DNA of 64,000 nt from an uncultured Mycoplasmatota bacterium (GCA_900543825.1 UQSR01000005.1:11122-75121); one strand, 5' to 3'; counted from the first letter of the stretch, positions 16,717 to 41,911 are shown. Notes: generated by a model not told the origin, from the sequence alone. Numbers and translations: made by a program.

Positions 16717-17427
16717 ATGGGGACAGATTATATTAGTTTTTTATTTCAAATTATGGCTTGTTTTTTACTTAGTGCATGCATTGGTGTTGAAAGACAATAT
16801 AGAAGAAGAAACGTTGGTCTTAGAACTATTATTTTAGTAAGTTTAGGTTCTTTTCTATTTGTTAGGTTTTCTTTTGCTTTTCCAAAGTCAGATATGACGA
16901 GAGTGGCCGCTCAAGTAGTAGCTGGTATTGGTTTTTTGGGAGCTGGAGTAATCATAAAGGATGATAAATCTGTTAAGGGACTTACTACTGCTGCTACGCT
17001 ATGGTGTAGTGCTGCTATTGGTATTCTTTGCTCAGCTAACTTAATTTTTGAGGCTGCTATTGGTACAGTACTTATACTATTTACTAATATTATCTTAAGA
17101 AGCGTCAATAGTAAAATTAATTTTTTAAGTGGTAATGTTAATTATAATTTATATCATTATACTATTGTTTGTGAGGAAAAAAACGATAGTAGTTTACTTA
17201 AAATTATTAAAGAAATAGTACGAAAATATAAAATTTCTATTAAAAGTTTAGAAACAAATGATTTAGAAAATGGTAATGTAAAAATATCGCTTTGTATATT
17301 AAGTAATTGTGCTAATGATAGTTTTAGTAGTGAAATTATGCAGAAGTTATCTGAAAGACGTGATGTTATTTCTATATCACTTAATAAGGAAGATGGAAAG
17401 TTTTTATACGAAGAAGAGGAATTATAA
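16717..17427 (+). CDS. MgtC/SapB-family membrane protein
   Basis: LSACIGVERQYRRRNVGLRT MgtC motif. Start chosen at the ATG with a GGAGG RBS 6 nt upstream, a TTATAAT -10 lies just upstream, and the ORF-track TTG start at 16699 is less likely. Confidence 0.7.
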   Translation: MGTDYISFLFQIMACFLLSACIGVERQYRRRNVGLRTIILVSLGSFLFVRFSFAFPKSDMTRVAAQVVAGIGFLGAGVIIKDDKSVKGLTTAATLWCSAAIGILCSANLIFEAAIGTVLILFTNIILRSVNSKINFLSGNVNYNLYHYTIVCEEKNDSSLLKIIKEIVRKYKISIKSLETNDLENGNVKISLCILSNCANDSFSSEIMQKLSERRDVISISLNKEDGKFLYEEEEL

Positions 17428-17440
17428 AAATATCTAGTAT

Positions 17441-18121
17441 TTATAATTTAATAATACTAGATATTTTTTTTATTACTTTTTTTTCTATTCTGGATATGTA
17501 TGATTGTGAAATGCCTAACATATTTGCCACCTCTTTTTGAGTCATTTCTTTTTTTCCATTTAAACCATATCTTAATTCTATTATTTCTCTATCGCGGTCT
17601 TCTAATTTTGATACTTCTTGATACATCATATACTTATCTAATTCTTCTTCAATAGGTTTAGTAACTATATCATTGTCAGTACCTAGGACGTCCTCTAAAT
17701 GTAATTCATTTCCTTCTGAATCAAAGGATAGTGAATCTTCAAATGATACTTCAGTTCTTTTTCTTTTAGTTTTTCTTAAATACATTAGTATTTCATTATC
17801 TATGCATCTAGAAGCATAAGTTGCTAGTTTAATGTTTTTATCATTTTGATAGGTGTTTACTCCTTTTATTAAACCTATCGTACCAATAGATACTAAGTCT
17901 TCTAAATCTATTTTTGTGTTTTCATATTTTTTTGCTAAAAAAACTACTAATCTTAGGTTGTGTTCTATGAGTTTATCTCTTGCTTTCATATCTCCATTTA
18001 AAAAGAGATTTATATATTTTTCTTCTTCCTCTTTTTCTAGTGGTTCTGGTAAAATATCTGTACTTCCAACGTAGAATAAGTAATTTAATTTACTAAATAT
18101 TTTTCTTAATAATTTTAACAT
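17441..18121 (-). CDS. sigE: Sporulation sigma factor sigma-E precursor (pro-sigma-E)
   Basis: N-terminal pro-sequence, then YVGSTDILPEPL and NLRLVVFLAKKYENTKIDLEDLVSIGTIGLIKGVNTY, and KLATYASRCIDNEILMYLRK. This aligns closely with Bacillus SigE and follows spoIIGA directly. Confidence 0.85.
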   Translation of the reverse strand: MLKLLRKIFSKLNYLFYVGSTDILPEPLEKEEEEKYINLFLNGDMKARDKLIEHNLRLVVFLAKKYENTKIDLEDLVSIGTIGLIKGVNTYQNDKNIKLATYASRCIDNEILMYLRKTKRKRTEVSFEDSLSFDSEGNELHLEDVLGTDNDIVTKPIEEELDKYMMYQEVSKLEDRDREIIELRYGLNGKKEMTQKEVANMLGISQSYISRIEKKVIKKISSIIKL

Positions 18122-26982: not shown

Positions 26983-28641
26983 TTAAAGCTGCTCTATTTT
27001 TGTTATTCTTTCTTTTATTCTATCTTTACCTAGTAATCTCATTATTTCATATAAGTCTGGTGTCATACTTTTTGTTGTTAGTGCTACTCTTATTACTGTT
27101 GATATGTCTGCTACGCTTCCTTTATACTTATCTGGATTTTCTTTGTATTCTTTCATATTACTGCAATAGCCTAGTTCGTCTGTCATGTCTTTGATATTGT
27201 TAAACCATGCTTCTTTGTCGGTAATATTGAAATATTTTTGCATATATGTTCTTAGTATCTTAATGATTTCATTTTTATCGTCAATTTTTCCCCATTCATA
27301 TGAGGTTGGATTGTATAATTCGTCATACATATAGAATATTTGACTTTTTATATCACTATAGCAGGAATAGTCTTTTCTAGGCTTTTTCTGTTCTCTTTCT
27401 ATGTTTAGTACGTTTTTTGTGTAATCTTCATATTTTACTAGTAGATTATTAAATTCTTTATCATATTCTTTGCTCCAATTTACTAAATTAGTATATACTT
27501 CGTCCTTAGTCATTTTACTAATGTAATTTTTAGATATGTTATTTAATTTTTCTAAATCATATAAAGCTCCTGATGGAGACATTTTTTTGGGAGAAAAATT
27601 AAAATCTAAGAAATTTTTGTCTGGATTAGCGGCATGCCATTCTTCGTAATTGGAATTAATTATTGTCATCAATGATTCTATTACTGCAATTGTAGGATAT
27701 CCTTTTTCTTTATAATAACTCATACTTGCTTCTGGGTCTTTTCTTTTGCTTATTTTTCTTTTGATTTCACCATCTTGCTTTAATATCAGTGGGGTGTGAA
27801 TGTATTTAGGTGGTTTTAAGCCTAATGCTTTAAACATTTCTAGATGTTTAGTTACGCTTGGTAGCCATTCCTCTCCTCTTACTACATGCGTAGTGTGCAT
27901 TAGATGGTCATCTACTACATGAGCAAAATGATAAGTTGGAAGCATGGTATCGCTTTTCATAATTACATCATCTATGTCATTTTCACTTAAACTTAGTTTT
28001 CCTTTTGATAGGTCTTCAAAAATTATTTTATTGTTAAAATTGCCTTCTGATTTGAATCTAATGACATAGCTTTCGCCATTTTTTATTCTTGTAATTGCTT
28101 CCTCTATGCTAATACTTCTACATTTAGCAAATCTACCATAGTAACCTGTTCTCATTTTTTTTTCTTCTTGATTTTTTCTCAATTCTTCTAGTGTTTCTTT
28201 TTTACAAAAGCATGGATATGCTCTACCTATTTCAATTAATCTTTTTATGTAAGCGTGATATATTTCTATTCTTTCACTTTGAATATATGGTCCATAATTG
28301 CCTACTATTTTATCCTTATACTCATATTCATCGGGCATAAGATTATATTCTTTCAATGTTTTTATTATTAATTCAATGGCAGAATCTACTTCTCTTGTTT
28401 TGTCGGTGTCTTCATTTCTTAAATAAAATACTCCATTTGTATTTTTTGCAATAATATAATCTGTAAGTGCTTGATAAAATCCTCCTATATGCATAAATCC
28501 TGTTGGACTAGGAGCAAATCTTGTTACTTTCGCGCCTTCCTTTAAATTTCTTTCTGGATACATTTTTTCATAATCTTCTATTGTTTTGGTAACATCAGGA
28601 AATAATAATTCTGCTAAGTCCTTATTTGTCATTTTTTTCAC
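26983..28641 (-). CDS. gltX: Glutamate--tRNA ligase family protein (class I, long 552-aa form)
   Basis: RFAPSPTGFMHIGG (HIGH-type) and KISKRK (KMSKS-type) motifs, and RNEDTD. It is longer than typical bacterial GluRS, so substrate tRNA (Glu vs Gln, discriminating or not) cannot be told from sequence. Confidence 0.75.
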   Translation of the reverse strand: MKKMTNKDLAELLFPDVTKTIEDYEKMYPERNLKEGAKVTRFAPSPTGFMHIGGFYQALTDYIIAKNTNGVFYLRNEDTDKTREVDSAIELIIKTLKEYNLMPDEYEYKDKIVGNYGPYIQSERIEIYHAYIKRLIEIGRAYPCFCKKETLEELRKNQEEKKMRTGYYGRFAKCRSISIEEAITRIKNGESYVIRFKSEGNFNNKIIFEDLSKGKLSLSENDIDDVIMKSDTMLPTYHFAHVVDDHLMHTTHVVRGEEWLPSVTKHLEMFKALGLKPPKYIHTPLILKQDGEIKRKISKRKDPEASMSYYKEKGYPTIAVIESLMTIINSNYEEWHAANPDKNFLDFNFSPKKMSPSGALYDLEKLNNISKNYISKMTKDEVYTNLVNWSKEYDKEFNNLLVKYEDYTKNVLNIEREQKKPRKDYSCYSDIKSQIFYMYDELYNPTSYEWGKIDDKNEIIKILRTYMQKYFNITDKEAWFNNIKDMTDELGYCSNMKEYKENPDKYKGSVADISTVIRVALTTKSMTPDLYEIMRLLGKDRIKERITKIEQL

Positions 28642-28724
28642 CTCGTTTTTTATTTTATTAGGTATACACTATATTCATTATTATTATAGTTAAATATAAT
28701 ATATTGAAAGGAGAACAGATTAAC

Positions 28725-28871
28725 ATGTATGGTTGTGGATACCCTTCTTATGGATATAGCTATGGCGCTAATGGTTTTTGGATAATCATCGTCGTACTTA
28801 TAATATTCTTCATATTATTCTGGAACAATGGTTCTTGTGGCTGCGGCTGTGGTCAAAGATGTTGCAAATAA
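28725..28871 (+). CDS. Unannotated YjcZ-like tiny Cys/Gly/Tyr-rich transmembrane sporulation-type peptide (48 aa)
   Basis: AAAGGAGA RBS 9 nt before the ATG. Peptide MYGCGYPSYGYSYGANGFWIIIVVLIIFFILFWNNGSCGCGCGQRCCK, followed by a terminator. Confidence 0.55.
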   Translation: MYGCGYPSYGYSYGANGFWIIIVVLIIFFILFWNNGSCGCGCGQRCCK

Positions 28872-28887
28872 TAACTATATCAAAATA

Positions 28888-28916
28888 AAGCCCTTTTGAA
28901 GGGCTATTTTTATTTA
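28888..28916 (+). terminator. Bidirectional rho-independent terminator (small peptide gene on plus, tRNA-Gln on minus)
   Basis: AGCCCTT-TTG-AAGGGCT hairpin followed by TATTTTTATTT on plus; on the minus strand the same hairpin is followed by TTATTTTG directly after the tRNA 3' end. Confidence 0.65.
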
Positions 28917-28917
28917 G

Positions 28918-28992
28918 TGGTTGCCCTGGTTAGATTCGAACTAACGCGTGCTAGAGTCAGAGTCTAGAGCCTTACCACTTGGCTACAGGGCA
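28918..28992 (-). tRNA. tRNA-Gln with anticodon CUG
   Basis: Minus-strand sequence TGCCCTGTAGCCAAGTGGTAAGGCTCTAGACTCTGACTCTAGCACGCGTTAGTTCGAATCTAACCAGGGCAACCA. U1-A72 start typical of tRNA-Gln, anticodon loop CT-CTG-AC, T-loop TTCGAAT, encoded CCA. Confidence 0.8.
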
Positions 28993-29103
28993 GTTACTGA
29001 TATAATTATAGCATCTAATTTTTAATTATTCAAGTTTTTTTCATTTATCTGCTTATTTTTCTAGTTGTCTATACTTGCTTCTGCTATAATTATATCAGTA
29101 ACT
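28992..29103. repeat. Perfect 21-bp inverted repeat (AGTTACTGATATAATTATAGC / GCTATAATTATATCAGTAACT) flanking a 70-bp AT-rich spacer
   Basis: Arms at 28992-29012 and 29083-29103 are exact reverse complements. The left arm begins at the first nucleotide upstream of tRNA-Gln position 1 and contains its -10 box. The right arm abuts the structured region 3' of tnpB. Confidence 0.6.
29005..29033 (-). promoter_or_regulatory. Near-consensus sigma-A promoter for tRNA-Gln
   Basis: Minus strand: TTGAAT (29028-29033), 17-nt spacer, TATAAT (29005-29010), 12 nt before the tRNA 5' end. Confidence 0.5.
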
Positions 29104-30397
29104 CTCCCCGAATAAAGTGCAAATTGTTTGCACCATCACTTCACAGTGATGAATTTCTGTTTCTTGGAAACTACACTTAGCTTCGTCCACAGACTTAAAT
29201 TCCGATAAGTGCTACCGTACTTTATTTTTACTTTAAAGAAATTTTGTTCGTTATTGACATTCATTATTGATACCTGGAATATACTTTCTTCATATATAAT
29301 TTTAGCCCTTCAAACATGATATTTATACTTGCATTTAAATCTCTATCTAATGTGTTTTTGCAACATTGGCATACATAGTCTCTCTCATTTAAGTTCTTGT
29401 ATTTTTTATCTATATTATCACAAACACTACAGGTTTGACTTGATGGATAGTAGGTATTTATTTTGAAAAAGTATTTACCTTTTTCTTTAGACTTGTATTC
29501 TAGTTGTTTTAGTATTTCTCTAAATGTTGCATCATTTATTTTTTTTGATAGATTTATGTTTTTGTCCATAATCATTTTTTTAATATTTAATGATTCGGTA
29601 ATTATTATATCATAATTATCGGTTATTTCTTTTGTTATTTTATGAATGTAGTATTTTCTGGCATTGGATAATTTGCTATAGAGTTTATTTAATCTTTTTA
29701 AATTTTTGTAATAGTTTTGACTTCCTTTATTCTTTTTGGATAATTTATAGTGTTCTCTTTTTATTTGTTCTTCGTATTTATTTATATATTTGTTATTATC
29801 ATACGATGTATTATCTGACATTGTTATTAGTTTCTTTATTCCTAAATCTATTCCTACTATTGTATTTGGTTTTCTTTTTGATGGTTCTGGCAATTCATAT
29901 AATATACTCACATAATATTTGCTATTTTTATCTTTCGATATTGTTACGTTTGTTATTTTGCCATTTATTTTGGTGATATTTCTATAGCCTCTTATTTTTA
30001 ATTCTTCTAATTCTGGTAATTTTATTGTTCTACTAATTAAATCTAATTCTATATTACAGTATTTATTGTAAATAGCTTTAATTGTATAACTATTTTTACC
30101 ATATTTGCTTCGATATTTTGGATTACTAATTCCACTGTTGAGATGTCTTTTATAATTATCTTGTAGATTGAATATTGTTTTCTTGATAAGCAATGGATTG
30201 GCTTCTAGTAAGAAAGGATATTCATATTTTAATTTATTTGTATAATCTTTAATACAAGAATAGGCGTTTATATATCCTTCGCTAATTATTTTTCTAAGAT
30301 AATAATTATATACAAATCTATTACATCCAAAAGTTTTATTTAGTTTTTGTTTTTGTGTGTCACTTGGATATATTCTAAATTTATATGCTTTATACAT
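29104..30397 (-). mobile_element. IS200/IS605-family tnpB-only element (IS1341-like); boundaries approximate
   Basis: Intact tnpB with a structured ~160-nt 3' region (hairpins GTGCAAA..TTTGCAC, CATCACT..AGTGATG, GTTTC..GAAAC), typical of an omega-RNA scaffold. No Y1 (HUH) tnpA is present. Confidence 0.4.
29264..30397 (-). CDS. tnpB: RNA-guided endonuclease TnpB (OrfB, IS200/IS605 family)
   Basis: MYKAYKFRIYPS...QKQKL..FGC.RFVYN N-terminus; split RuvC residues (IVGIDLG D, IIITESL E, DRDLNASINI D); C-terminal Zn finger CSVCDN...CQCCKN; 377 aa. Confidence 0.85.
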   Translation of the reverse strand: MYKAYKFRIYPSDTQKQKLNKTFGCNRFVYNYYLRKIISEGYINAYSCIKDYTNKLKYEYPFLLEANPLLIKKTIFNLQDNYKRHLNSGISNPKYRSKYGKNSYTIKAIYNKYCNIELDLISRTIKLPELEELKIRGYRNITKINGKITNVTISKDKNSKYYVSILYELPEPSKRKPNTIVGIDLGIKKLITMSDNTSYDNNKYINKYEEQIKREHYKLSKKNKGSQNYYKNLKRLNKLYSKLSNARKYYIHKITKEITDNYDIIITESLNIKKMIMDKNINLSKKINDATFREILKQLEYKSKEKGKYFFKINTYYPSSQTCSVCDNIDKKYKNLNERDYVCQCCKNTLDRDLNASINIMFEGLKLYMKKVYSRYQ

Positions 30398-30409
30398 TAT
30401 TTCACCGCC

Positions 30410-30940
30410 TTATATTTGCTTGTTTATTAAATTAATTAGATTTTTTCTCTCTTCAGGAGTTAATAATTCTAACATTTTATCATAATTATCTAATACATTT
30501 ACATTGATAATATTTAAAGGACTTTTTAGTACTATTCCTTCTTTGTTCTTTAATATTAATTTTGCTACTTCTTTTGTGTTAAATATATCTAGGTTTATGA
30601 TTGCATGTGTACTTGAGAATAATTCTTCGTTTTCTAATTTTAGTTTGGTTATTTCTTCAAATAGATCATAGTATGTTCTAAGTACATAATCTATTTTATC
30701 AAAGTTTTCATTTATTCCTAAACTGAAGAATTGATTTTTATTTACTCTTATTAGGTAATTATTATTTATGGTGTTGTCTACTATATGGCTTCTTATTTCT
30801 TTTATATAGATGTCTCCTTCTACTAAAATGATATTGTGTTTAGATAAAATGTGGTTTAGGAATTTATATATGATTTTTCTATCTAGTTCTTTGTTTGTTA
30901 TGACTTTATTAAATATTTGTATTATTTTAATAGTATCCAT
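30410..30940 (-). CDS. Hypothetical 176-aa protein immediately upstream of tnpB (not a recognisable transposase)
   Basis: Same strand, 12 nt upstream of tnpB; lacks HUH/Tyr or serine-recombinase motifs. Confidence 0.4.
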   Translation of the reverse strand: MDTIKIIQIFNKVITNKELDRKIIYKFLNHILSKHNIILVEGDIYIKEIRSHIVDNTINNNYLIRVNKNQFFSLGINENFDKIDYVLRTYYDLFEEITKLKLENEELFSSTHAIINLDIFNTKEVAKLILKNKEGIVLKSPLNIINVNVLDNYDKMLELLTPEERKNLINLINKQI

Positions 30941-31104
30941 TTTTTCCTCCTTGCAATGATAATAGCAGATTTGATTTAATTATGCAAATGGGGTAAAAAG
31001 GTATTTTGTGAATGTTTTTTCTGGTATAAAGTTATTTTTAATGTGTTAAAAATATATTTTGGCTGTTATTAATGGTATAAAAAGTTATTTTGATTAAATT
31101 TTAT

Positions 31105-31143
31105 TTTTTTAAAAAAATGAATCTCATATATTTGAGATTCATT
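31105..31143 (-). terminator. Rho-independent terminator of leuS
   Basis: 11-bp stem AATGAATCTCA-TATATT-TGAGATTCATT five nt after the leuS stop; the minus strand continues with TTTTTAAAAAAA. Confidence 0.7.
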
Positions 31144-31147
31144 ATGT

Positions 31148-33559
31148 TTATTTTATAACAATATTTACTATTCTTCCTGGTACTACGATAACCTTTACTA
31201 CTTTTTTGTTTTCAATCCACTTTTTTATGTTTTCTCTTGATAGTGCTGTTTTTTCTAATTCTTCTTTTGAAGTATTTATGTTTATTTTGATGGTATCTCT
31301 TACTTTACCATTTACTTGAATAGCTATTTCTTTTTCTTGATCTTCTGTTTTGGCTTCATCATATTTTGGCCATGGTCTATTGCAAATTGGTTCATATCCT
31401 ATAGTTTCATTTAATTCTTCTGTTATATGTGGAGCAATTGGATTTAGTAGTTCTAGTAATATTCTATAATCGCCTTTGGTAATATGCTCTTTTTCGTCAT
31501 AAGTATTTAATAGAATCATTAGTGTTGATACTGCTGTATTGTAGGCCATGTGAGTTAGGTCGTGTTCAACTTTTTTGATACTTTTGTTGATAATCACTTC
31601 TAGGTCTTTAGAATATTCATCATTATCTGTGACTTTATCTTTTAGTCTTACTATTCTATCAACAAATCTTTTGCATCCTTTAAGTGAGTCTGTGCTCCAT
31701 GGTGCATCTTGTGTATAGTCACCCATAAACATTTCGTATATTCTTAAGGCATCTGCTCCATATCCGTTTACTATTTCGTCTGGATTTATTACATTGCCTT
31801 TACTTTTACTCATTTTTTCGTTATTAGAGCCTAATATCATTCCGTGGCTTACTCTGGTCCAAATCATTTCTTTATGTGGTACTAAGCCAAAGTTGTATAG
31901 CATCTGTACCCAGAATCTAGCATATAATAGATGTCTAGCTGTATGTTCCATGCCACCGTCATACCAATCTACTCTGTTCCAATATTTCATTACATCCATA
32001 TTAGCAAATTCTTTGTTATTGTGTGGATCCATAAATCTTAGGAAATACCATGATGAACCAGCCCAGTTAGGCATTGTATCGGTTTCTCTTCTGGCAGGGC
32101 CTCCGCAACAAGGACAAGTTGTATTTACCCATTCATCGATCTTTGCTAATGGGCTTTCACCGTTTTCAGTTGGTTCGTATTCTGCAACATTTGGAAGAAG
32201 TAGTGGTAAATCTTTTTCTTCCATAGGTTGCCAGCCACATTTTTCGCAATAAATCATTGGAATTGGTTCCCCCCAGAATCTTTGTCTTGAGAAAATCCAA
32301 TCTCTCATTTTATAGTTATTTACTCTTCTTCCAATACCTAGTTTTTCTAGTTTTTTAGTAATGGCTTCTTTGGCTTCTTCCACTGTCATACCGGTGAATT
32401 CTTCGGAATTTATAAGTTTGCAATTTTTTCCTAAATAATCATATTTTTCAAAAGCTTTAGTTGAGATGTCTCCTCCGGATATTACTTCTATCATATCTAA
32501 GTTATGGGCTTTCATGTATTCATAATCTCTTTGGTCATGAGCTGGAACGGCCATTACTGCACCGGTACCATAGTCGCCTAAAACGAAGTCTCCTATAAAT
32601 ACTGGTACTTCTTTACCATTTACTGGATTAATTGCTTTAATTCCTTTTAATTCTACACCTGTTTTTCCTTTATTTAATTCTGTTCTATCCATATTAGATT
32701 TATGTGATGTTGCTTCTATATAAGATAAAACTTCATCTTTATTTTCTACTCTTGGTAATAGTTCTTTCATTAGTTTTCCGTCTGGAGCTATTACAAAGAA
32801 TGTTATACCATATACTGTTTCAATACATGTGGTAAATACTGAGAAAGATCCTCCTCCTACAACATTTACATCCAACTCAACGCCGGTTGATTTGCCTATC
32901 CAATTGATTTGTCCTAATTTTACTCTTTCAGCAAAATTTGTGTCATCAAGTCCTTTTAATAAATCTTCAGCATAATCGGACATTCTAAGCATCCATTGGG
33001 ATTTTTCTTTTTGAACAACGCTACTGCCACATCTTTCACACACGCCACCAGCGGCATCTTCGTTGGAAAGTACGGTTTTGCATGTTGGGCACCAATTTAC
33101 TGGTATTGTTGCTTTATAGGCCATATTGTGTTTGTAAAATTGCAAGAATTGCCATTGTGTCCATTTATAATATTCTGGATCGGTAGTAGAAAATTCTCTA
33201 CTCCAATCAAATGAAAATCCAAGTCTTTTCATTTGGCCTTTAAATGTTTTTATATTTTCTTTTACGGCGTCTTTGGGATGAATATGATTTTTTATGGCAT
33301 ATTGTTCTGCTGGTGCTCCGAATGCATCCCATCCCATTGGATATAAAACGTTATATCCTTGTCTTCTTTTCATTCTAGCTATAGCGTCTTGTGCTGTATA
33401 GCCTCTAACGTGGCCTACATGTAGTCCACTTCCTGATGGATATGGAAATTCTACTAGAATGTAATATGGTTTTTTGTTGCTCTCGTTTTGTGCTTCAAAA
33501 ACATGATTATTTTCCCAGTACTCTTGCCATTTTTTTTCTATTTTTTTGAAATTATACAT
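31148..33559 (-). CDS. leuS: Leucine--tRNA ligase
   Basis: 803 aa. Has HVGH (HIGH), the CP1 editing domain and KMSKS (EKMSKSKGNV), with an MYNFKKIEKKWQEYW N-terminus. Confidence 0.9.
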   Translation of the reverse strand: MYNFKKIEKKWQEYWENNHVFEAQNESNKKPYYILVEFPYPSGSGLHVGHVRGYTAQDAIARMKRRQGYNVLYPMGWDAFGAPAEQYAIKNHIHPKDAVKENIKTFKGQMKRLGFSFDWSREFSTTDPEYYKWTQWQFLQFYKHNMAYKATIPVNWCPTCKTVLSNEDAAGGVCERCGSSVVQKEKSQWMLRMSDYAEDLLKGLDDTNFAERVKLGQINWIGKSTGVELDVNVVGGGSFSVFTTCIETVYGITFFVIAPDGKLMKELLPRVENKDEVLSYIEATSHKSNMDRTELNKGKTGVELKGIKAINPVNGKEVPVFIGDFVLGDYGTGAVMAVPAHDQRDYEYMKAHNLDMIEVISGGDISTKAFEKYDYLGKNCKLINSEEFTGMTVEEAKEAITKKLEKLGIGRRVNNYKMRDWIFSRQRFWGEPIPMIYCEKCGWQPMEEKDLPLLLPNVAEYEPTENGESPLAKIDEWVNTTCPCCGGPARRETDTMPNWAGSSWYFLRFMDPHNNKEFANMDVMKYWNRVDWYDGGMEHTARHLLYARFWVQMLYNFGLVPHKEMIWTRVSHGMILGSNNEKMSKSKGNVINPDEIVNGYGADALRIYEMFMGDYTQDAPWSTDSLKGCKRFVDRIVRLKDKVTDNDEYSKDLEVIINKSIKKVEHDLTHMAYNTAVSTLMILLNTYDEKEHITKGDYRILLELLNPIAPHITEELNETIGYEPICNRPWPKYDEAKTEDQEKEIAIQVNGKVRDTIKININTSKEELEKTALSRENIKKWIENKKVVKVIVVPGRIVNIVIK

Positions 33560-36926: not shown

Positions 36927-38450
36927 TTACTGGTTGTTTTTTGGTATTATTATTCTTTTGATTATATAATAGATTATAGTTATAAATATGTAAAAAATTA
37001 TGACTAAAATGCTATTGATGATGTTTTTTGTATCTACTTTTATTATTAATGTAAATAATGTTAATATTAAACATAATATTATGTTTTCATAGATAATATT
37101 TAATATGCTATTAAAGTTATCTAATAAATTTATTTTTAGTTTTCTAGTTAAAAGTATTATTCCAATAATAATACTGATTATTAGTCCTAATATTGTACTG
37201 GCTATGCTTCCGAAATATGCTGTATATCCCATTCTATATGCTGAATTTATTAGTGGTACTTCAAAAATTATCTTAGTTATTAAGCTTATTAAAAGAAATA
37301 TTATAATATTTTTTTCTTTGTTACATATTATATTTATATTTACAATACTATCGTATATTGTATAAAAGAATATTAATGGTACTAATCCGAAAATAAAGTT
37401 ATAATCGTTATTAAATAATGTAATATTGATTGGTCCTGATATAATCATTAATATTATAGTTATCGTTAGGCTGGTATTGATTATTTTATTTAATATTTTA
37501 TGAAATAAGTCTTTATAGTTATTATCTTTGTTTATTATAGATGTTTTTAATTTATTTATATCTGTATTATATATTTTTTTGATTATTAAATGTATAATAT
37601 ATATAATTATTATTCCATAAAAGTATGTATTGGTAATATAATTTGATACATCATCATAACTATATTTATATCTATTTAGTAATATATAATATAATACTAT
37701 AATGGATATGTATATATATGATGCGTTTATTATATTATATATTATTATGCATCTATTATCTATTAATGATTTTTTTATTTGTATAATATAATTTATTTTT
37801 GTTTCTTCTCTCTTTTTTGTATATTTATTGTTTTTCTTTACTACTAATATATAAGATAATATTATTAGTATTATGCCTAATATTATTGGTACTAAATATA
37901 TTATTATTATTTTTAAATAATCTTCTAATAAAAAAACTTTATATAGTAAGAAGATATTGATTATATTAAATAATATACTACTTAATTTATATATATTTAA
38001 TAATATGTTTTTTTTATATCCAAATATATTTAAATAGTTATTTATTAGTTTTATAATAAGTGATATGGATAAGAATATTGTCATGGTTATATTAACTAGA
38101 TATAATTTTTCTATATTTATTAGTGTTGATATAATGTAAGATATTACTCCTAAAAGCATGGTTAAAATAATGATAAGTAATATACTACATTTAAATACTT
38201 TATTCATTGTATATAGATATTTTTTATCATAATAATCATTTAATAATTTTTTTATTTTATTTGAACTAAATATACTATAATATATTAAAAACAAGCTAAA
38301 ACTAAAGGTAAGTAAGAAAGTATTACTATTTTTAGTAAGATGATATAATACTATTATATATATAAATGTTAAGATATTTATTATTTTCTTCATATGTACT
38401 CCTAAGAAAATTATATAGGAAAATATTGTTTTTGTAAACTTTTTTTGCAA
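36927..38450 (-). CDS. Large polytopic membrane protein, unknown function
   Basis: 507 aa, at least 12 hydrophobic segments, extremely Ile/Asn/Tyr-rich. Confidence 0.5.
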   Translation of the reverse strand: MQKKFTKTIFSYIIFLGVHMKKIINILTFIYIIVLYHLTKNSNTFLLTFSFSLFLIYYSIFSSNKIKKLLNDYYDKKYLYTMNKVFKCSILLIIILTMLLGVISYIISTLINIEKLYLVNITMTIFLSISLIIKLINNYLNIFGYKKNILLNIYKLSSILFNIINIFLLYKVFLLEDYLKIIIIYLVPIILGIILIILSYILVVKKNNKYTKKREETKINYIIQIKKSLIDNRCIIIYNIINASYIYISIIVLYYILLNRYKYSYDDVSNYITNTYFYGIIIIYIIHLIIKKIYNTDINKLKTSIINKDNNYKDLFHKILNKIINTSLTITIILMIISGPINITLFNNDYNFIFGLVPLIFFYTIYDSIVNINIICNKEKNIIIFLLISLITKIIFEVPLINSAYRMGYTAYFGSIASTILGLIISIIIGIILLTRKLKINLLDNFNSILNIIYENIILCLILTLFTLIIKVDTKNIINSILVIIFYIFITIIYYIIKRIIIPKNNQ

Positions 38451-39867: not shown

Positions 39868-41911
39868 CTTCCTTCATAATTGCAGTACGAACTCTAACTT
39901 TACTTTTATTAATCTTGATATTAATACTTCCATCCAAATCAGTTCTATATATTTTTGAATTGTTTAAATTTTCTAATACTTCTTCGTTAGGATGGCCATA
40001 TATATTACCTTTCCCCAAAGATATAAGTGAAATTTTAGGAGTAATACAATCTATAAAATCTTTACTACTACTAGTCTTAGAACCATGATGTCCTACCTTA
40101 AAAAAAGTAATATCCGAAAGATTATATTTAGACATAATATAATCCTCAACATTACTAGAGGCATCCCCCATAAACAAAAACTTATATTTCAAATATTCAA
40201 AATAAATAACATTACTATTATCATTTTCATTATCAAATATCTTATCATTAAGAAAATATAAATATATACCATGAATATCAATTTTATCACCAAAAGTATC
40301 ATATCCAATGTCCTTATCCTCAAAAATATCAATAGCTTCTTCTTCAAATAACGATTTATCACCTCTATTAAAAATAACCATATCTACCCTAAAATTATCA
40401 GTAAGATTAATAAGACCACCAATATGATCCTTATCACCATGACTAATAATAACATAATCAAGTTTTCTAATCCCTCTGCTTTTCAAATACATTATAATAT
40501 TATTCTTCATAATAGAATACCCATCATCTTCCCCAGTATCAATAAGAATATTACCACCATTATTAGGAAAACTAACAAGATACGAATCACCCTCTCCAAC
40601 ATCAAACATAGTAATCTCTAAATTATTATTAAAATAAGGATAAATATAATGAATTAAAGTAACTAAAATAAACAAATATATAAACCTCTTATATCTATAA
40701 ATACCATAAATAATAACAAAATATAAAATAACTATAATAATACTAGGTTTGCAAAAAATAAATCTCATAAAAGAAATATCATTCAAAAAGAAAGATATAT
40801 CCTCTAAAATACTAGTAAAGAAAAACATAATACTATCACATATAGGAAAAAACAAAGTAATAATAGCAAGTGGAATCAAAATAACACTAACTATAGGTAC
40901 AATTAAAACATTAATAATAATACTAAAAACATTAACCTCATAAAAATAAAATACAGTAATAGGAAAAGATACCAAAAAAGATATAACAGAAGTATAAACT
41001 ACCTTAATAAAATAATTTTTATTTTTATATTTATCATAAAAAAGAATAAGAAAAAAACTAATTAAATAAGAATAAATAAAACCAATATCATAAATAATAA
41101 AAGGATTAATAAAAATAGCGATAACTAAAGTAAATAACATAATATCAATTTTATCAATTTCCAATTTAAAAAAATAATTAATACTACTAAGTATAAACAT
41201 AATACAGGCTCTAAGTAAAGAAGAAGTATATGAAAAAATCAAATAAAATATAAGAAAAATATCACTAATAAAATATTTAATACGTTTATTATAAGTAATC
41301 TTATCCAAATAAATATATAAAATACCAATAATAAGATTAATATGCATACCACTTATAGAAAACAAATGACTTATACCATTAATTCTATAACTTTCCTTAA
41401 TATCACTAGAAAGACTATTATCTCCAAATAATAAAGTCTTAATATAATTACCAGACTTAAATTTATTAACCCTATCATATAAAATATTTTTCAAAGTATA
41501 AAAATAATTACTATTATTTTCTATCTTATTAATACTACTAGCCTTAACTATATAAAATATCTTCCTATTATATAAATAATCTTTATAACTAAAAGAGTTA
41601 AATATAGTACTATCCATAGGAGTATATAACTCTCCTTTAACAAGAAGTTTATCACCATAAAGAAGTTTATCAAAAACCAAATTATTATAACTATAATTAA
41701 CAATTAATACCTCTTTAGCCTTAAGCGTAATACTAATCTTACCATCACTAACTTTATAATCAGTAACAATTCCCACAAAAGTATCATCGTCTTTTTCATA
41801 ACAAGATTCAAATTTATAATAACGCGTAAACAATATCGCTCCTATTAAAAAAATTAAAGCTAATAACTTAAATAAATATTTAAACTTTAATATACATCTT
41901 AATCTTTTCAA
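39860..41911 (-). CDS. comEC: DNA internalisation competence protein ComEC/Rec2
   Basis: 683 aa: N-terminal OB/DUF4131-like region, multi-TM competence domain, C-terminal metallo-beta-lactamase fold (ISHGDKDHIGG). Confidence 0.85.
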   Translation of the reverse strand: MKRLRCILKFKYLFKLLALIFLIGAILFTRYYKFESCYEKDDDTFVGIVTDYKVSDGKISITLKAKEVLIVNYSYNNLVFDKLLYGDKLLVKGELYTPMDSTIFNSFSYKDYLYNRKIFYIVKASSINKIENNSNYFYTLKNILYDRVNKFKSGNYIKTLLFGDNSLSSDIKESYRINGISHLFSISGMHINLIIGILYIYLDKITYNKRIKYFISDIFLIFYLIFSYTSSLLRACIMFILSSINYFFKLEIDKIDIMLFTLVIAIFINPFIIYDIGFIYSYLISFFLILFYDKYKNKNYFIKVVYTSVISFLVSFPITVFYFYEVNVFSIIINVLIVPIVSVILIPLAIITLFFPICDSIMFFFTSILEDISFFLNDISFMRFIFCKPSIIIVILYFVIIYGIYRYKRFIYLFILVTLIHYIYPYFNNNLEITMFDVGEGDSYLVSFPNNGGNILIDTGEDDGYSIMKNNIIMYLKSRGIRKLDYVIISHGDKDHIGGLINLTDNFRVDMVIFNRGDKSLFEEEAIDIFEDKDIGYDTFGDKIDIHGIYLYFLNDKIFDNENDNSNVIYFEYLKYKFLFMGDASSNVEDYIMSKYNLSDITFFKVGHHGSKTSSSKDFIDCITPKISLISLGKGNIYGHPNEEVLENLNNSKIYRTDLDGSINIKINKSKVRVRTAIMKEGE

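Follow-up and report, generated by a model that had tools for sequence, protein, structure and literature searches.

The locus lies in a stretch of 64 kb, called here the window, meaning the whole stretch of DNA that was analysed. It comprises, read along the minus strand, LeuRS, ORF176, tnpB with its omega-RNA scaffold, a perfect inverted repeat and tRNA-Gln (Table 1). Beyond the tRNA-Gln terminator lie a small Cys/Gly-rich ORF on the other strand and then GluRS. ORF176 has no Pfam or NCBIfam match and no fold match. Its homologues, with 59–65% identity, follow LeuRS in relatives without TnpB, either as LeuRS-ORF-EzrA (L098, L122) or as LeuRS-ORF-other genes-tRNAGln-GluRS (L101, L124). This conserved position in genomes without TnpB marks ORF176 as a host gene and rules it out as cargo of the insertion sequence (IS). 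The scan shows no minus-strand terminator from 31116 to 28905, which makes a single ORF176-tnpB-omegaRNA-tRNA transcription unit plausible. Such a read-through unit would probably start at the promoter-like site that precedes ORF176.

Table 1. Features of the tRNA-Gln/tnpB locus, in window coordinates.
Feature	Position	Strand	Evidence and remarks
Bidirectional intrinsic terminator	28889..28905	.	Just after tRNA-Gln; promoter/terminator scan
tRNA-Gln (anticodon CTG)	28918..28992	-	ARAGORN; Rfam tRNA 65 bits, E 5.8e-13
Arm L	28992..29013		Extended -10 (TGcTATAAT, minus strand), 12-nt leader and tRNA base +1
tRNA-Gln promoter	29005..29033	-	-35 TTGAAT, 17-nt spacer, TG, -10 TATAAT; promoter scan, 10/12 matches plus TG
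Spacer, AT-rich, 68 nt	29014..29081	.	Loop of the predicted RNA hairpin; holds the tRNA -35
Arm R	29082..29103	.	Lineage-specific inverted copy of arm L; predicted omega-RNA guide positions 7–28
Linker GGGGAG	29104..29109	-	First 6 nt of the predicted guide; GGGGAT or TGGGAT in other lineages
omega-RNA scaffold and IS right end	29110..29263	-	Ends ...GTGCAAACAATTTGCAC-TTTATTC at 29110; aligned with 15 related TnpB loci
tnpB, 377 aa	29264..30397	-	Pfam OrfB_IS605, Cas12f1-like_TNB, HTH_OrfB_IS605; NCBIfam guided_TnpB, 262 bits
ORF176	30410..30940	-	Host gene of unknown function; stop codon 12 nt ahead of the tnpB ATG, in the place expected of a left end
Promoter-like site upstream of ORF176	30959..30988	-	TTTGCA-18-TATTAT with TG
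LeuRS	31148..33559	-	Terminator follows at 31116..31143

The inverted repeat was originally predicted as a perfect match of 21 bp with a gap of 70 bp. The repeat is real, with 22 of 22 nt matching in each arm and a spacer of 68 nt. Arm L reads AGTTACTGATATAATTATAGCA, and arm R is its exact reverse complement. The 22-mer is present at two sites only in the window, even when three mismatches are allowed; the shuffle expectation for matches at this tolerance is 0.01 in 64 kb. It is the longest perfect inverted repeat of the window at spacers of up to 200 nt (runners-up 17 and 16 nt), and in each of 100 first-order Markov simulations the longest arm is 16 nt or less. The match is far beyond chance, as had been claimed. 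Ten of the 22 nt of each arm form the self-palindromic core TATAATTATA, so that the informative, non-trivial part of the match is 12 nt; these 12 nt alone are still well beyond chance for a local search. Both arms contain TATAAT, and, as the core is palindromic, each reads as an extended -10 in both directions (TGaTATAAT one way, TGcTATAAT the other). The original prediction called for a search for additional copies. No further 20-mer copy from a related element is found in the window or in the metagenome collection, and the scan of metagenome contigs returns this locus and four unrelated chance matches of 20–24 nt. The repeat is a local inverted duplication. A possible degenerate extension into tRNA positions 2–7 (CGGGGAG vs CAGGGC) is suggestive, not significant, and is not kept in L005.

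Arm L is the old copy. Base 28992 is both its first base and position 1 of tRNA-Gln by ARAGORN and Rfam, giving an overlap of 1 nt where the original prediction had the arm adjoining the tRNA. The -10 assigned to the tRNA in this arm holds up: TTGAAT-17-TATAAT with TG is conserved in orthologous loci. A -35, a 17-nt spacer, TGn, TATAAT, the distance to the gene and conservation in orthologues, as expected of a sigma-70 extended -10 promoter, are all present. The tRNA-Gln itself is invariant in all strains compared. Two TnpB-less orthologues (L093, L094), with GluRS 82–83% identical to that of the window, are arranged as LeuRS, terminator, TTGAAT-17-TGCTATAATTATAT, leader, tRNA-Gln and GluRS, with a single copy of the motif. 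A third (L096) likewise has a single promoter copy and shares TGCTATAATTATAT with these two. In a fourth (L101), TGCTATAATTATATCAGTAAT precedes the tRNA and equals arm L at 21 of 22 bases in the equivalent place; no inverted copy is found there at up to five mismatches across 10.5 kb. Both -35 and -10 are conserved in L093, L094 and L101; L096 keeps the -10 and has TTGCAT as its -35. Arm R is absent from all four. Since the TnpB-less orthologues carry one promoter copy, matching arm L at 21/22 in L101, arm L is on this comparison the ancestral tRNA-Gln(CTG) core promoter and leader. The original prediction would have treated the same repeat in TnpB-less genomes as a palindrome unrelated to the IS; the four hold the tRNA-proximal copy only, and the association with TnpB is not refuted. 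The -35-proximal part of the spacer, compared by eye without formal alignment, resembles what lies between the genes in L093 and L094, where the site is empty. Identity among GluRS homologues drops from 97% to 86% with no intermediates, and the immediate pre-insertion state is not recoverable because the nearest locus (L095, 86%) is rearranged and without the tRNA. The nearest TnpB-less relatives are distant (ORF176 about 62%, GluRS as above), so that arm R could predate the TnpB insertion.

The TnpB is of the IS200/IS605 kind. Its D-E-D triad aligns with D191, E278 and D361 of ISDra2 TnpB. The RuvC triad is intact, and GIDLG, TES and DRD are conserved in the alignment with ISDra2 TnpB (8EXA/8H1J). 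Against L005 the tnpB dN/dS is 0.18 at dS 0.27, and full-length tnpB is intact in 24 of 25 alleles; judged by these values, the protein is maintained under purifying selection. The exact protein is found at this locus only, where tnpB appears to be inherited vertically. Eighty related TnpB loci, each in a gut Bacilli-type metagenome-assembled genome, served for comparison. In the 15 that were aligned, the omega-RNA scaffold is conserved up to a hairpin and TTT(G/A)TTC, and near-identical elements at independent insertions (L010/L013, L015/L047, L007/L048) have flanks that diverge directly after TTC. The right end is therefore placed at 29110 (boundary 29110/29109). The original prediction had arm R abutting the structured 3' region and considered an end at ~29104, in which case the guide would equal the left arm. 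Arm R does lie in the guide segment; six nucleotides, GGGGAG (29109–29104), intervene, and the predicted guide reads GGGGAGAGTTACTGATAT..., with arm R at positions 7–28, not 1–22. No omega-RNA family is matched in an Rfam scan of 27500–32500 (E<=1), in which the tRNA alone scored. Mycoplasma sRNA MCS4 appears in the same interval as a below-threshold match.

The left end of the related elements spans 100–155 nt, carries the AGGAAAGT motif and its own promoter, and follows a T-run and TTTAT, TTTGT or TTTAA. These three motifs are taken as the putative TAM; they are read from left-end flanks that also hold terminator T-runs and do not fix the exact TAM. TTTAA and TTTAT TAMs are reported for Firmicute TnpBs, in agreement with the inferred motif (PMC10705468). 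Upstream of the tnpB in the window no left end with sub-terminal structure next to a TAM is found, and the resemblance to related IS copies sets in about 16 nt ahead of the ATG. With ORF176 a host gene, a gap of 12 nt and similarity only from this point on, the element has no left end. No TnpA is found beside tnpB, and no second tnpB in the window. The element is without a left end, immobilised and embedded in a host operon ORF176-tnpB. It resembles IS200/IS605 TnpB/omega-RNA systems (ISDra2; homing model, Meers et al., bioRxiv 10.1101/2023.03.14.532601) in its HTH, OrfB_IS605 and zinc-ribbon domains and intact D-E-D, in the 3' UTR omega-RNA scaffold that ends at the right-end hairpin and TTC, and in a guide encoded by DNA flanking the right end. 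It differs in having no left end, no adjacent TnpA and a tnpB placed 12 nt after a host gene, and in a guide segment that is the inverted promoter/leader of the neighbouring tRNA, a state found in none of about 40 related loci.

Arm R is found in every TnpB-bearing strain compared, L005 included, and only in the tnpB lineage; the number of independent repeat-bearing lineages is one. Both arms are present on 14 strain contigs (L001–L005, L085–L092, L104) and 12 metagenome contigs, with native orientation in 26/26. The 22/22 match is confined to the strain clade of the window. Arm R has ...TATAGTA in L005, L085–L092, L104 and 10 of the 12 metagenome contigs, giving 20 perfect bases, one mismatch and one further match. 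The sole substitution within either arm, among about 37 strains and L005, is this C/T at arm R position 21, with T in most strains. It exchanges G-C for G-U in minus-strand RNA, where pairing is kept; pairing is lost in antisense RNA and in DNA. The variant is a strand-specific hint of RNA-level pairing. Arm R carries the leader variant of its own lineage and is therefore a local copy of arm L or has been homogenised against it. This inverted duplicate of the promoter/leader of the same lineage stands 6 nt past the right end of the TnpB element. At about 40 other TnpB loci the inverted repeats of the right-end flank are at most 13 nt, the chance level, which rules out that the TnpB clade carries the repeat in general. 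Insertion by IS200/IS605 elements leaves no target duplication. For this reason, and since some 40 TnpB loci lack the repeat, the suggestion that a promoter segment was duplicated when the IS inserted stands only in part: a promoter/leader duplicate tied to the TnpB lineage is present, and its creation by the insertion is not supported.

Substitutions are gathered just outside arm R, at 2 of 6 linker positions and 3–4 of the first 6 spacer positions. The repeat grew from 20 to 22 in the window clade by a change that belongs to a cluster of three substitutions. By a rough hand count, arm R varies at 1 site in 22 nt vs about 10 in 74 nt of linker and spacer (P ~0.18); it is not significantly less variable than its surroundings, and constraint on it is not demonstrable statistically. 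Divergence from L005 is 4–5% in the omega-RNA-to-tRNA stretch, 7–15% in the tnpB body and 11–13% beyond the tRNA. The low value of the first stretch fits constraint on omega-RNA and promoter, without singling out arm R; it could also reflect shared recent ancestry rather than selection. One low-coverage contig (L108) ends inside the spacer and is probably a rearrangement or chimera.

Perfect inverted repeats flanking a short segment that bears a -35 recall mobile or switchable DNA: a 112-bp MITE or PATE with 22-bp terminal inverted repeats, as the original prediction proposed, or an inverton that moves the -35 between the arms. The site is a hotspot of mobile genes; the same slot in relatives holds a gene with a weak, sub-threshold match to a PD-(D/E)XK transposase family. 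Like IS200/IS605-derived MITEs and PATEs, the segment is short, AT-rich and next to an IS end. Unlike them it is single-copy, with one arm and part of the interior being orthologous host promoter DNA; the ends of IS200/IS605 elements are moreover sub-terminal hairpins, not terminal inverted repeats. A MITE or PATE is ruled out, since there is a single copy in the window and the metagenome collection and since relatives that lack arm R nevertheless have arm L and the -35 region. The inverton is largely refuted: the inverted junction has 0 hits in the metagenome collection, compared with 12 metagenome and 14 strain contigs that are all native, no recombinase gene is adjacent, and the neighbouring ORFs hold no recombinase domain. 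Mobile or switchable DNA as a whole is accordingly given almost no credence.

RNA-guided action on the tRNA-Gln promoter, by a TnpB that binds arm L with the arm R guide in the manner of TldR or cuts it as a self-target, is very unlikely. It would account for a TnpB that is immobilised yet under purifying selection, and for 22 nt of guide segment that match the -10 and leader of the adjacent gene, comparable to TldR guides over a promoter -10 (PMC10705468). The arm, however, begins 6 nt past the scaffold-guide boundary, and at arm L four of these six first (seed) positions mismatch. The six nucleotides differ from lineage to lineage, whereas the flank of the putative target, within the tRNA, does not change. 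That flank, GGCTA or CAGGGC, is unlike TTTAT, TTTGT or TTTAA and unlike the reported TTTAA/TTTAT TAMs (PMC10705468). With the RuvC triad intact, binding would mean cleavage of the chromosome. The self-targeting geometry of the original prediction is ruled out at the DNA level by the right-end position, the seed mismatches and the non-TTTAT flank. A search of the window with a 16-nt guide at up to three mismatches gives no other target except an unrelated site at 41759. The element shares with TldR (nuclease-dead TnpB-like repressors, PMC10705468) the loss of transposon ends on at least one side, maintenance under selection and a guide segment matching a promoter -10 region. It differs by its intact RuvC triad, by a match that begins at guide position 7, by a matching site without cognate TAM and by a seed region that varies between lineages. 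Membership in TldR is rejected, as the RuvC active site is present, guide complementarity does not start at position 1 and no TAM is found.

Arm R as a working promoter, either a second upstream promoter of tRNA-Gln (TGaTATAAT, minus strand) or a rightward promoter antisense to omega-RNA and tnpB, is unlikely, though less so than RNA-guided action. Each arm has an extended -10 on both strands, and no strain departs from the minus-strand TGaTATAAT of arm R. The IS right end of relatives routinely has the -10 of the downstream gene within 5–40 nt, and a short antisense RNA could terminate at a plus-strand terminator-like hairpin at 29134–29151. Divergent transcription from symmetric -10 elements has precedent (Warman et al., bioRxiv 10.1101/2020.01.31.928960); as there, a -10 hexamer stands on both strands, here given by the palindromic TATAATTATA and accompanied by an upstream TG. 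The arrangement differs in that those promoters are single symmetric sites, whereas here the inverted copy, 68 nt away, spans 22 nt, of which 9 are non-promoter leader. At arm R the promoter scan is negative for both strands, with no usable -35; most strains, reading TACTATAAT, no longer have the TG of the rightward motif; and a near-consensus tRNA promoter already exists 90 bp downstream. A -10 alone would be sufficient for a promoter, and the 9-nt leader copy that makes the arms match is not needed for it.

The 112-nt hairpin has a predicted free energy of -28.5 kcal/mol (z = -7.9). Its 22 bp are kept in the predicted minimum-free-energy fold of the 383-nt stretch from omega-RNA to tRNA, in which five added pairs extend into the acceptor stem. 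With no terminator between tnpB/omega-RNA and the tRNA, RNA begun upstream of ORF176 is therefore expected to read through both arms. In such a transcript the arms would pair as a perfect duplex of 20–22 bp, guide segment against pre-tRNA leader. The duplex would mask the guide, leaving positions 7–28 unavailable while paired. RNase P cleavage at tRNA +1 would leave an upstream RNA with a blunt, exonuclease-resistant stem, and the duplex would block subsequent 3'-to-5' trimming. It would also be the kind of long perfect double-stranded RNA that RNase III cuts; a perfect duplex of at least 20 bp is an established substrate of this enzyme. Transcripts from the tRNA's own promoter, inside the repeat, would begin within arm L and, without arm R, fold as usual. 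Altogether the tnpB/omega-RNA transcript would be separated and insulated from the tRNA. These steps, from read-through to RNase III and RNase P cleavage and guide masking, are inferred. The repeat is tentatively interpreted, with confidence somewhat short of even, as a processing or insulation element between the captured tnpB/omega-RNA transcript and the tRNA, with masking of the guide as a side effect. RNase III processing stems of rRNA and tRNA operons and tRNA-assisted release of guide RNAs likewise place a duplex flanking a functional RNA in a polycistronic precursor. Shared with them are the predicted long perfect duplex and the tRNA immediately downstream of a guide RNA. The loop here, by contrast, holds a promoter and not a mature RNA, the repeat is known from one lineage, and its cleavage is putative.

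Nearly as likely as this processing/insulation interpretation is a neutral by-product: a template-switch (quasi-palindrome-type) or break-repair event beside the structured IS right end, seeded by the TATAATTATA core, would have copied the neighbouring promoter/leader in inverted orientation, and the repeat would be tolerated and inactive. The perfect 10-nt palindrome in each arm can seed strand switching, no second lineage shows the repeat among about 40 TnpB loci, and constraint on arm R is not statistically demonstrable. Substitutions gather where arm R meets its flanks, a pattern expected of a recombination junction or of small templated events that recurred, and the lengthening from 20 to 22 sits in the three-substitution cluster of the window clade. 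Against a mere scar, arm R lies no more than 6 nt from the scaffold-guide boundary, a small target in an intergenic space of about 150 nt. The repeat is also fixed in all strains and L005 across dS ~0.1–0.27, and the sole arm variant keeps RNA pairing.

A broader reading is improbable, ranking between the arm R promoter and RNA-guided action. In it the host would keep an immobile, nuclease-competent TnpB whose guide is rewritten against the tRNA-Gln leader/promoter. Maturation or activity of the omega-RNA would then be coupled to tRNA processing, with RNase P and/or RNase III defining or masking the guide, or the complex would regulate tRNA-Gln(CUG) by non-canonical, TAM-independent recognition.

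The feature belongs to a known kind, a stranded IS200/IS605 TnpB element, with a local curiosity that may fold its guide RNA against a tRNA leader. Were the repeat only a template-switch scar, it would be an ordinary local rearrangement and chiefly a caution against reading targeting into a perfect match merely because it is beyond chance and adjoins a guide RNA. Were it functional at the RNA level, a transposon-derived guide RNA would be masked or trimmed through base pairing to the leader of a host pre-tRNA, as a host-side safety catch or a maturation route for omega-RNA. To our knowledge, no such safety catch or maturation route for omega-RNA has been described. Coupling through a rewritten guide would represent a natural counterpart of engineered tRNA-gRNA arrays. 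The TnpB itself, left-end-less, confined to a single locus, with intact active site and low dN/dS, is a candidate intermediate towards domestication.

Related TnpB elements seem to have a systematic preference for the space separating a terminator from the promoter that comes next. The left end is preceded by a terminator T-run, and at many of the related loci promoter elements begin very soon after the right end. A -10 or extended -10 and the ribosome-binding site of the same-strand downstream gene are located 30-60 nt past the IS right end in L007, L008, L010 and L012-L016. Solo omega-RNA-like scaffold fragments, each the second scaffold of its locus, are present in L010 (2276-2367) and L011 (446-537); they precede the full TnpB element by 0.7-1.9 kb and have no adjoining tnpB.

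The slot between ORF176, the host gene upstream of tnpB in the window, and tRNA-Gln looks like an insertion hotspot. Other inserted genes occupy it in TnpB-less relatives (L101 5640-6480; L124 4675-4959). The L101 slot contains small, duplicated ORFs; the L124 gene matches the PD-(D/E)XK transposase family only weakly and below threshold (PF12784, E 0.003). Upstream of ORF176 both copies of an imperfect direct repeat contain TTTATACCA, similar to the TTTAT + ACAAT junction with which related TnpB elements begin on their left side; the repeat may have been left behind by previous insertions.

Features of the tRNA-Gln-tnpB region and other inverted repeats (window coordinates)
Feature	Position	Strand	Remarks
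Small ORF, 55 aa	28704-28871	+	Gly/Cys/Tyr-rich, apparently transmembrane; between tRNA-Gln and GluRS
Promoter-like site	28979-29006	+	TTGGCT-16-TATAAT with TG
Terminator-like hairpin	29134-29151	+	Antisense to omega-RNA stem, downstream of promoter-like site
tnpB	29264-30397	-	
Gap between tnpB start and host-gene stop	30398-30409		12 nt
Imperfect direct repeat, 34 nt	30997-31030 and 31048-31081		74% identity; upstream of ORF176
Perfect inverted repeat, 16 nt	17426-17468		11-nt spacer
Perfect inverted repeat, 17 nt	37680-37744		31-nt spacer

Arm L, the ancestral tRNA-Gln promoter/leader, has a symmetric -10, which also serves as the -10 of the plus-strand promoter-like site; the -35 of this site lies within the tRNA gene. 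Together with the terminator-like hairpin, the site could yield a short antisense RNA directed against the 3' portion of the omega-RNA. The two inverted repeats listed are the next-longest perfect ones in the window after that formed by arm L and its inverted copy, arm R.

Counterparts of the 55-aa ORF occur at the equivalent position in L093, L094, L096 and L101, all without TnpB. Divergence of the ORF's region between the window and L005, the diverged TnpB-bearing lineage, is unusually high (11-13 differences per 100 nt). In five same-species strains (L002, L004, L114, L117, L121) the tnpB-tRNA region is near-identical to that of the window, and the GluRS allele downstream of the tRNA has only ~76% nucleotide identity, with indels. 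This combination suggests allelic replacement by a recombination event that had one breakpoint close to the tRNA. In L108, a metagenome contig of low coverage (1.35x), tnpB, arm R and ~40 nt of the spacer are followed by unrelated coding DNA in place of the tRNA (L108 1-143, breakpoint at window 29042). The contig is also divergent beyond window 31350; it reflects either a genuine rearrangement or a chimeric assembly.

The window tnpB is devoid of a left end, its start lying 12 nt past the host gene. The D-E-D triad is nevertheless retained, and comparison with the L005 lineage gives a dN/dS of 0.18. Among 25 full-length alleles compared, only that of L089 is disrupted, a single-base gap cutting the gene call to 215 aa. 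The left-end-less tnpB with its predicted active nuclease may represent a candidate early stage of TnpB domestication.
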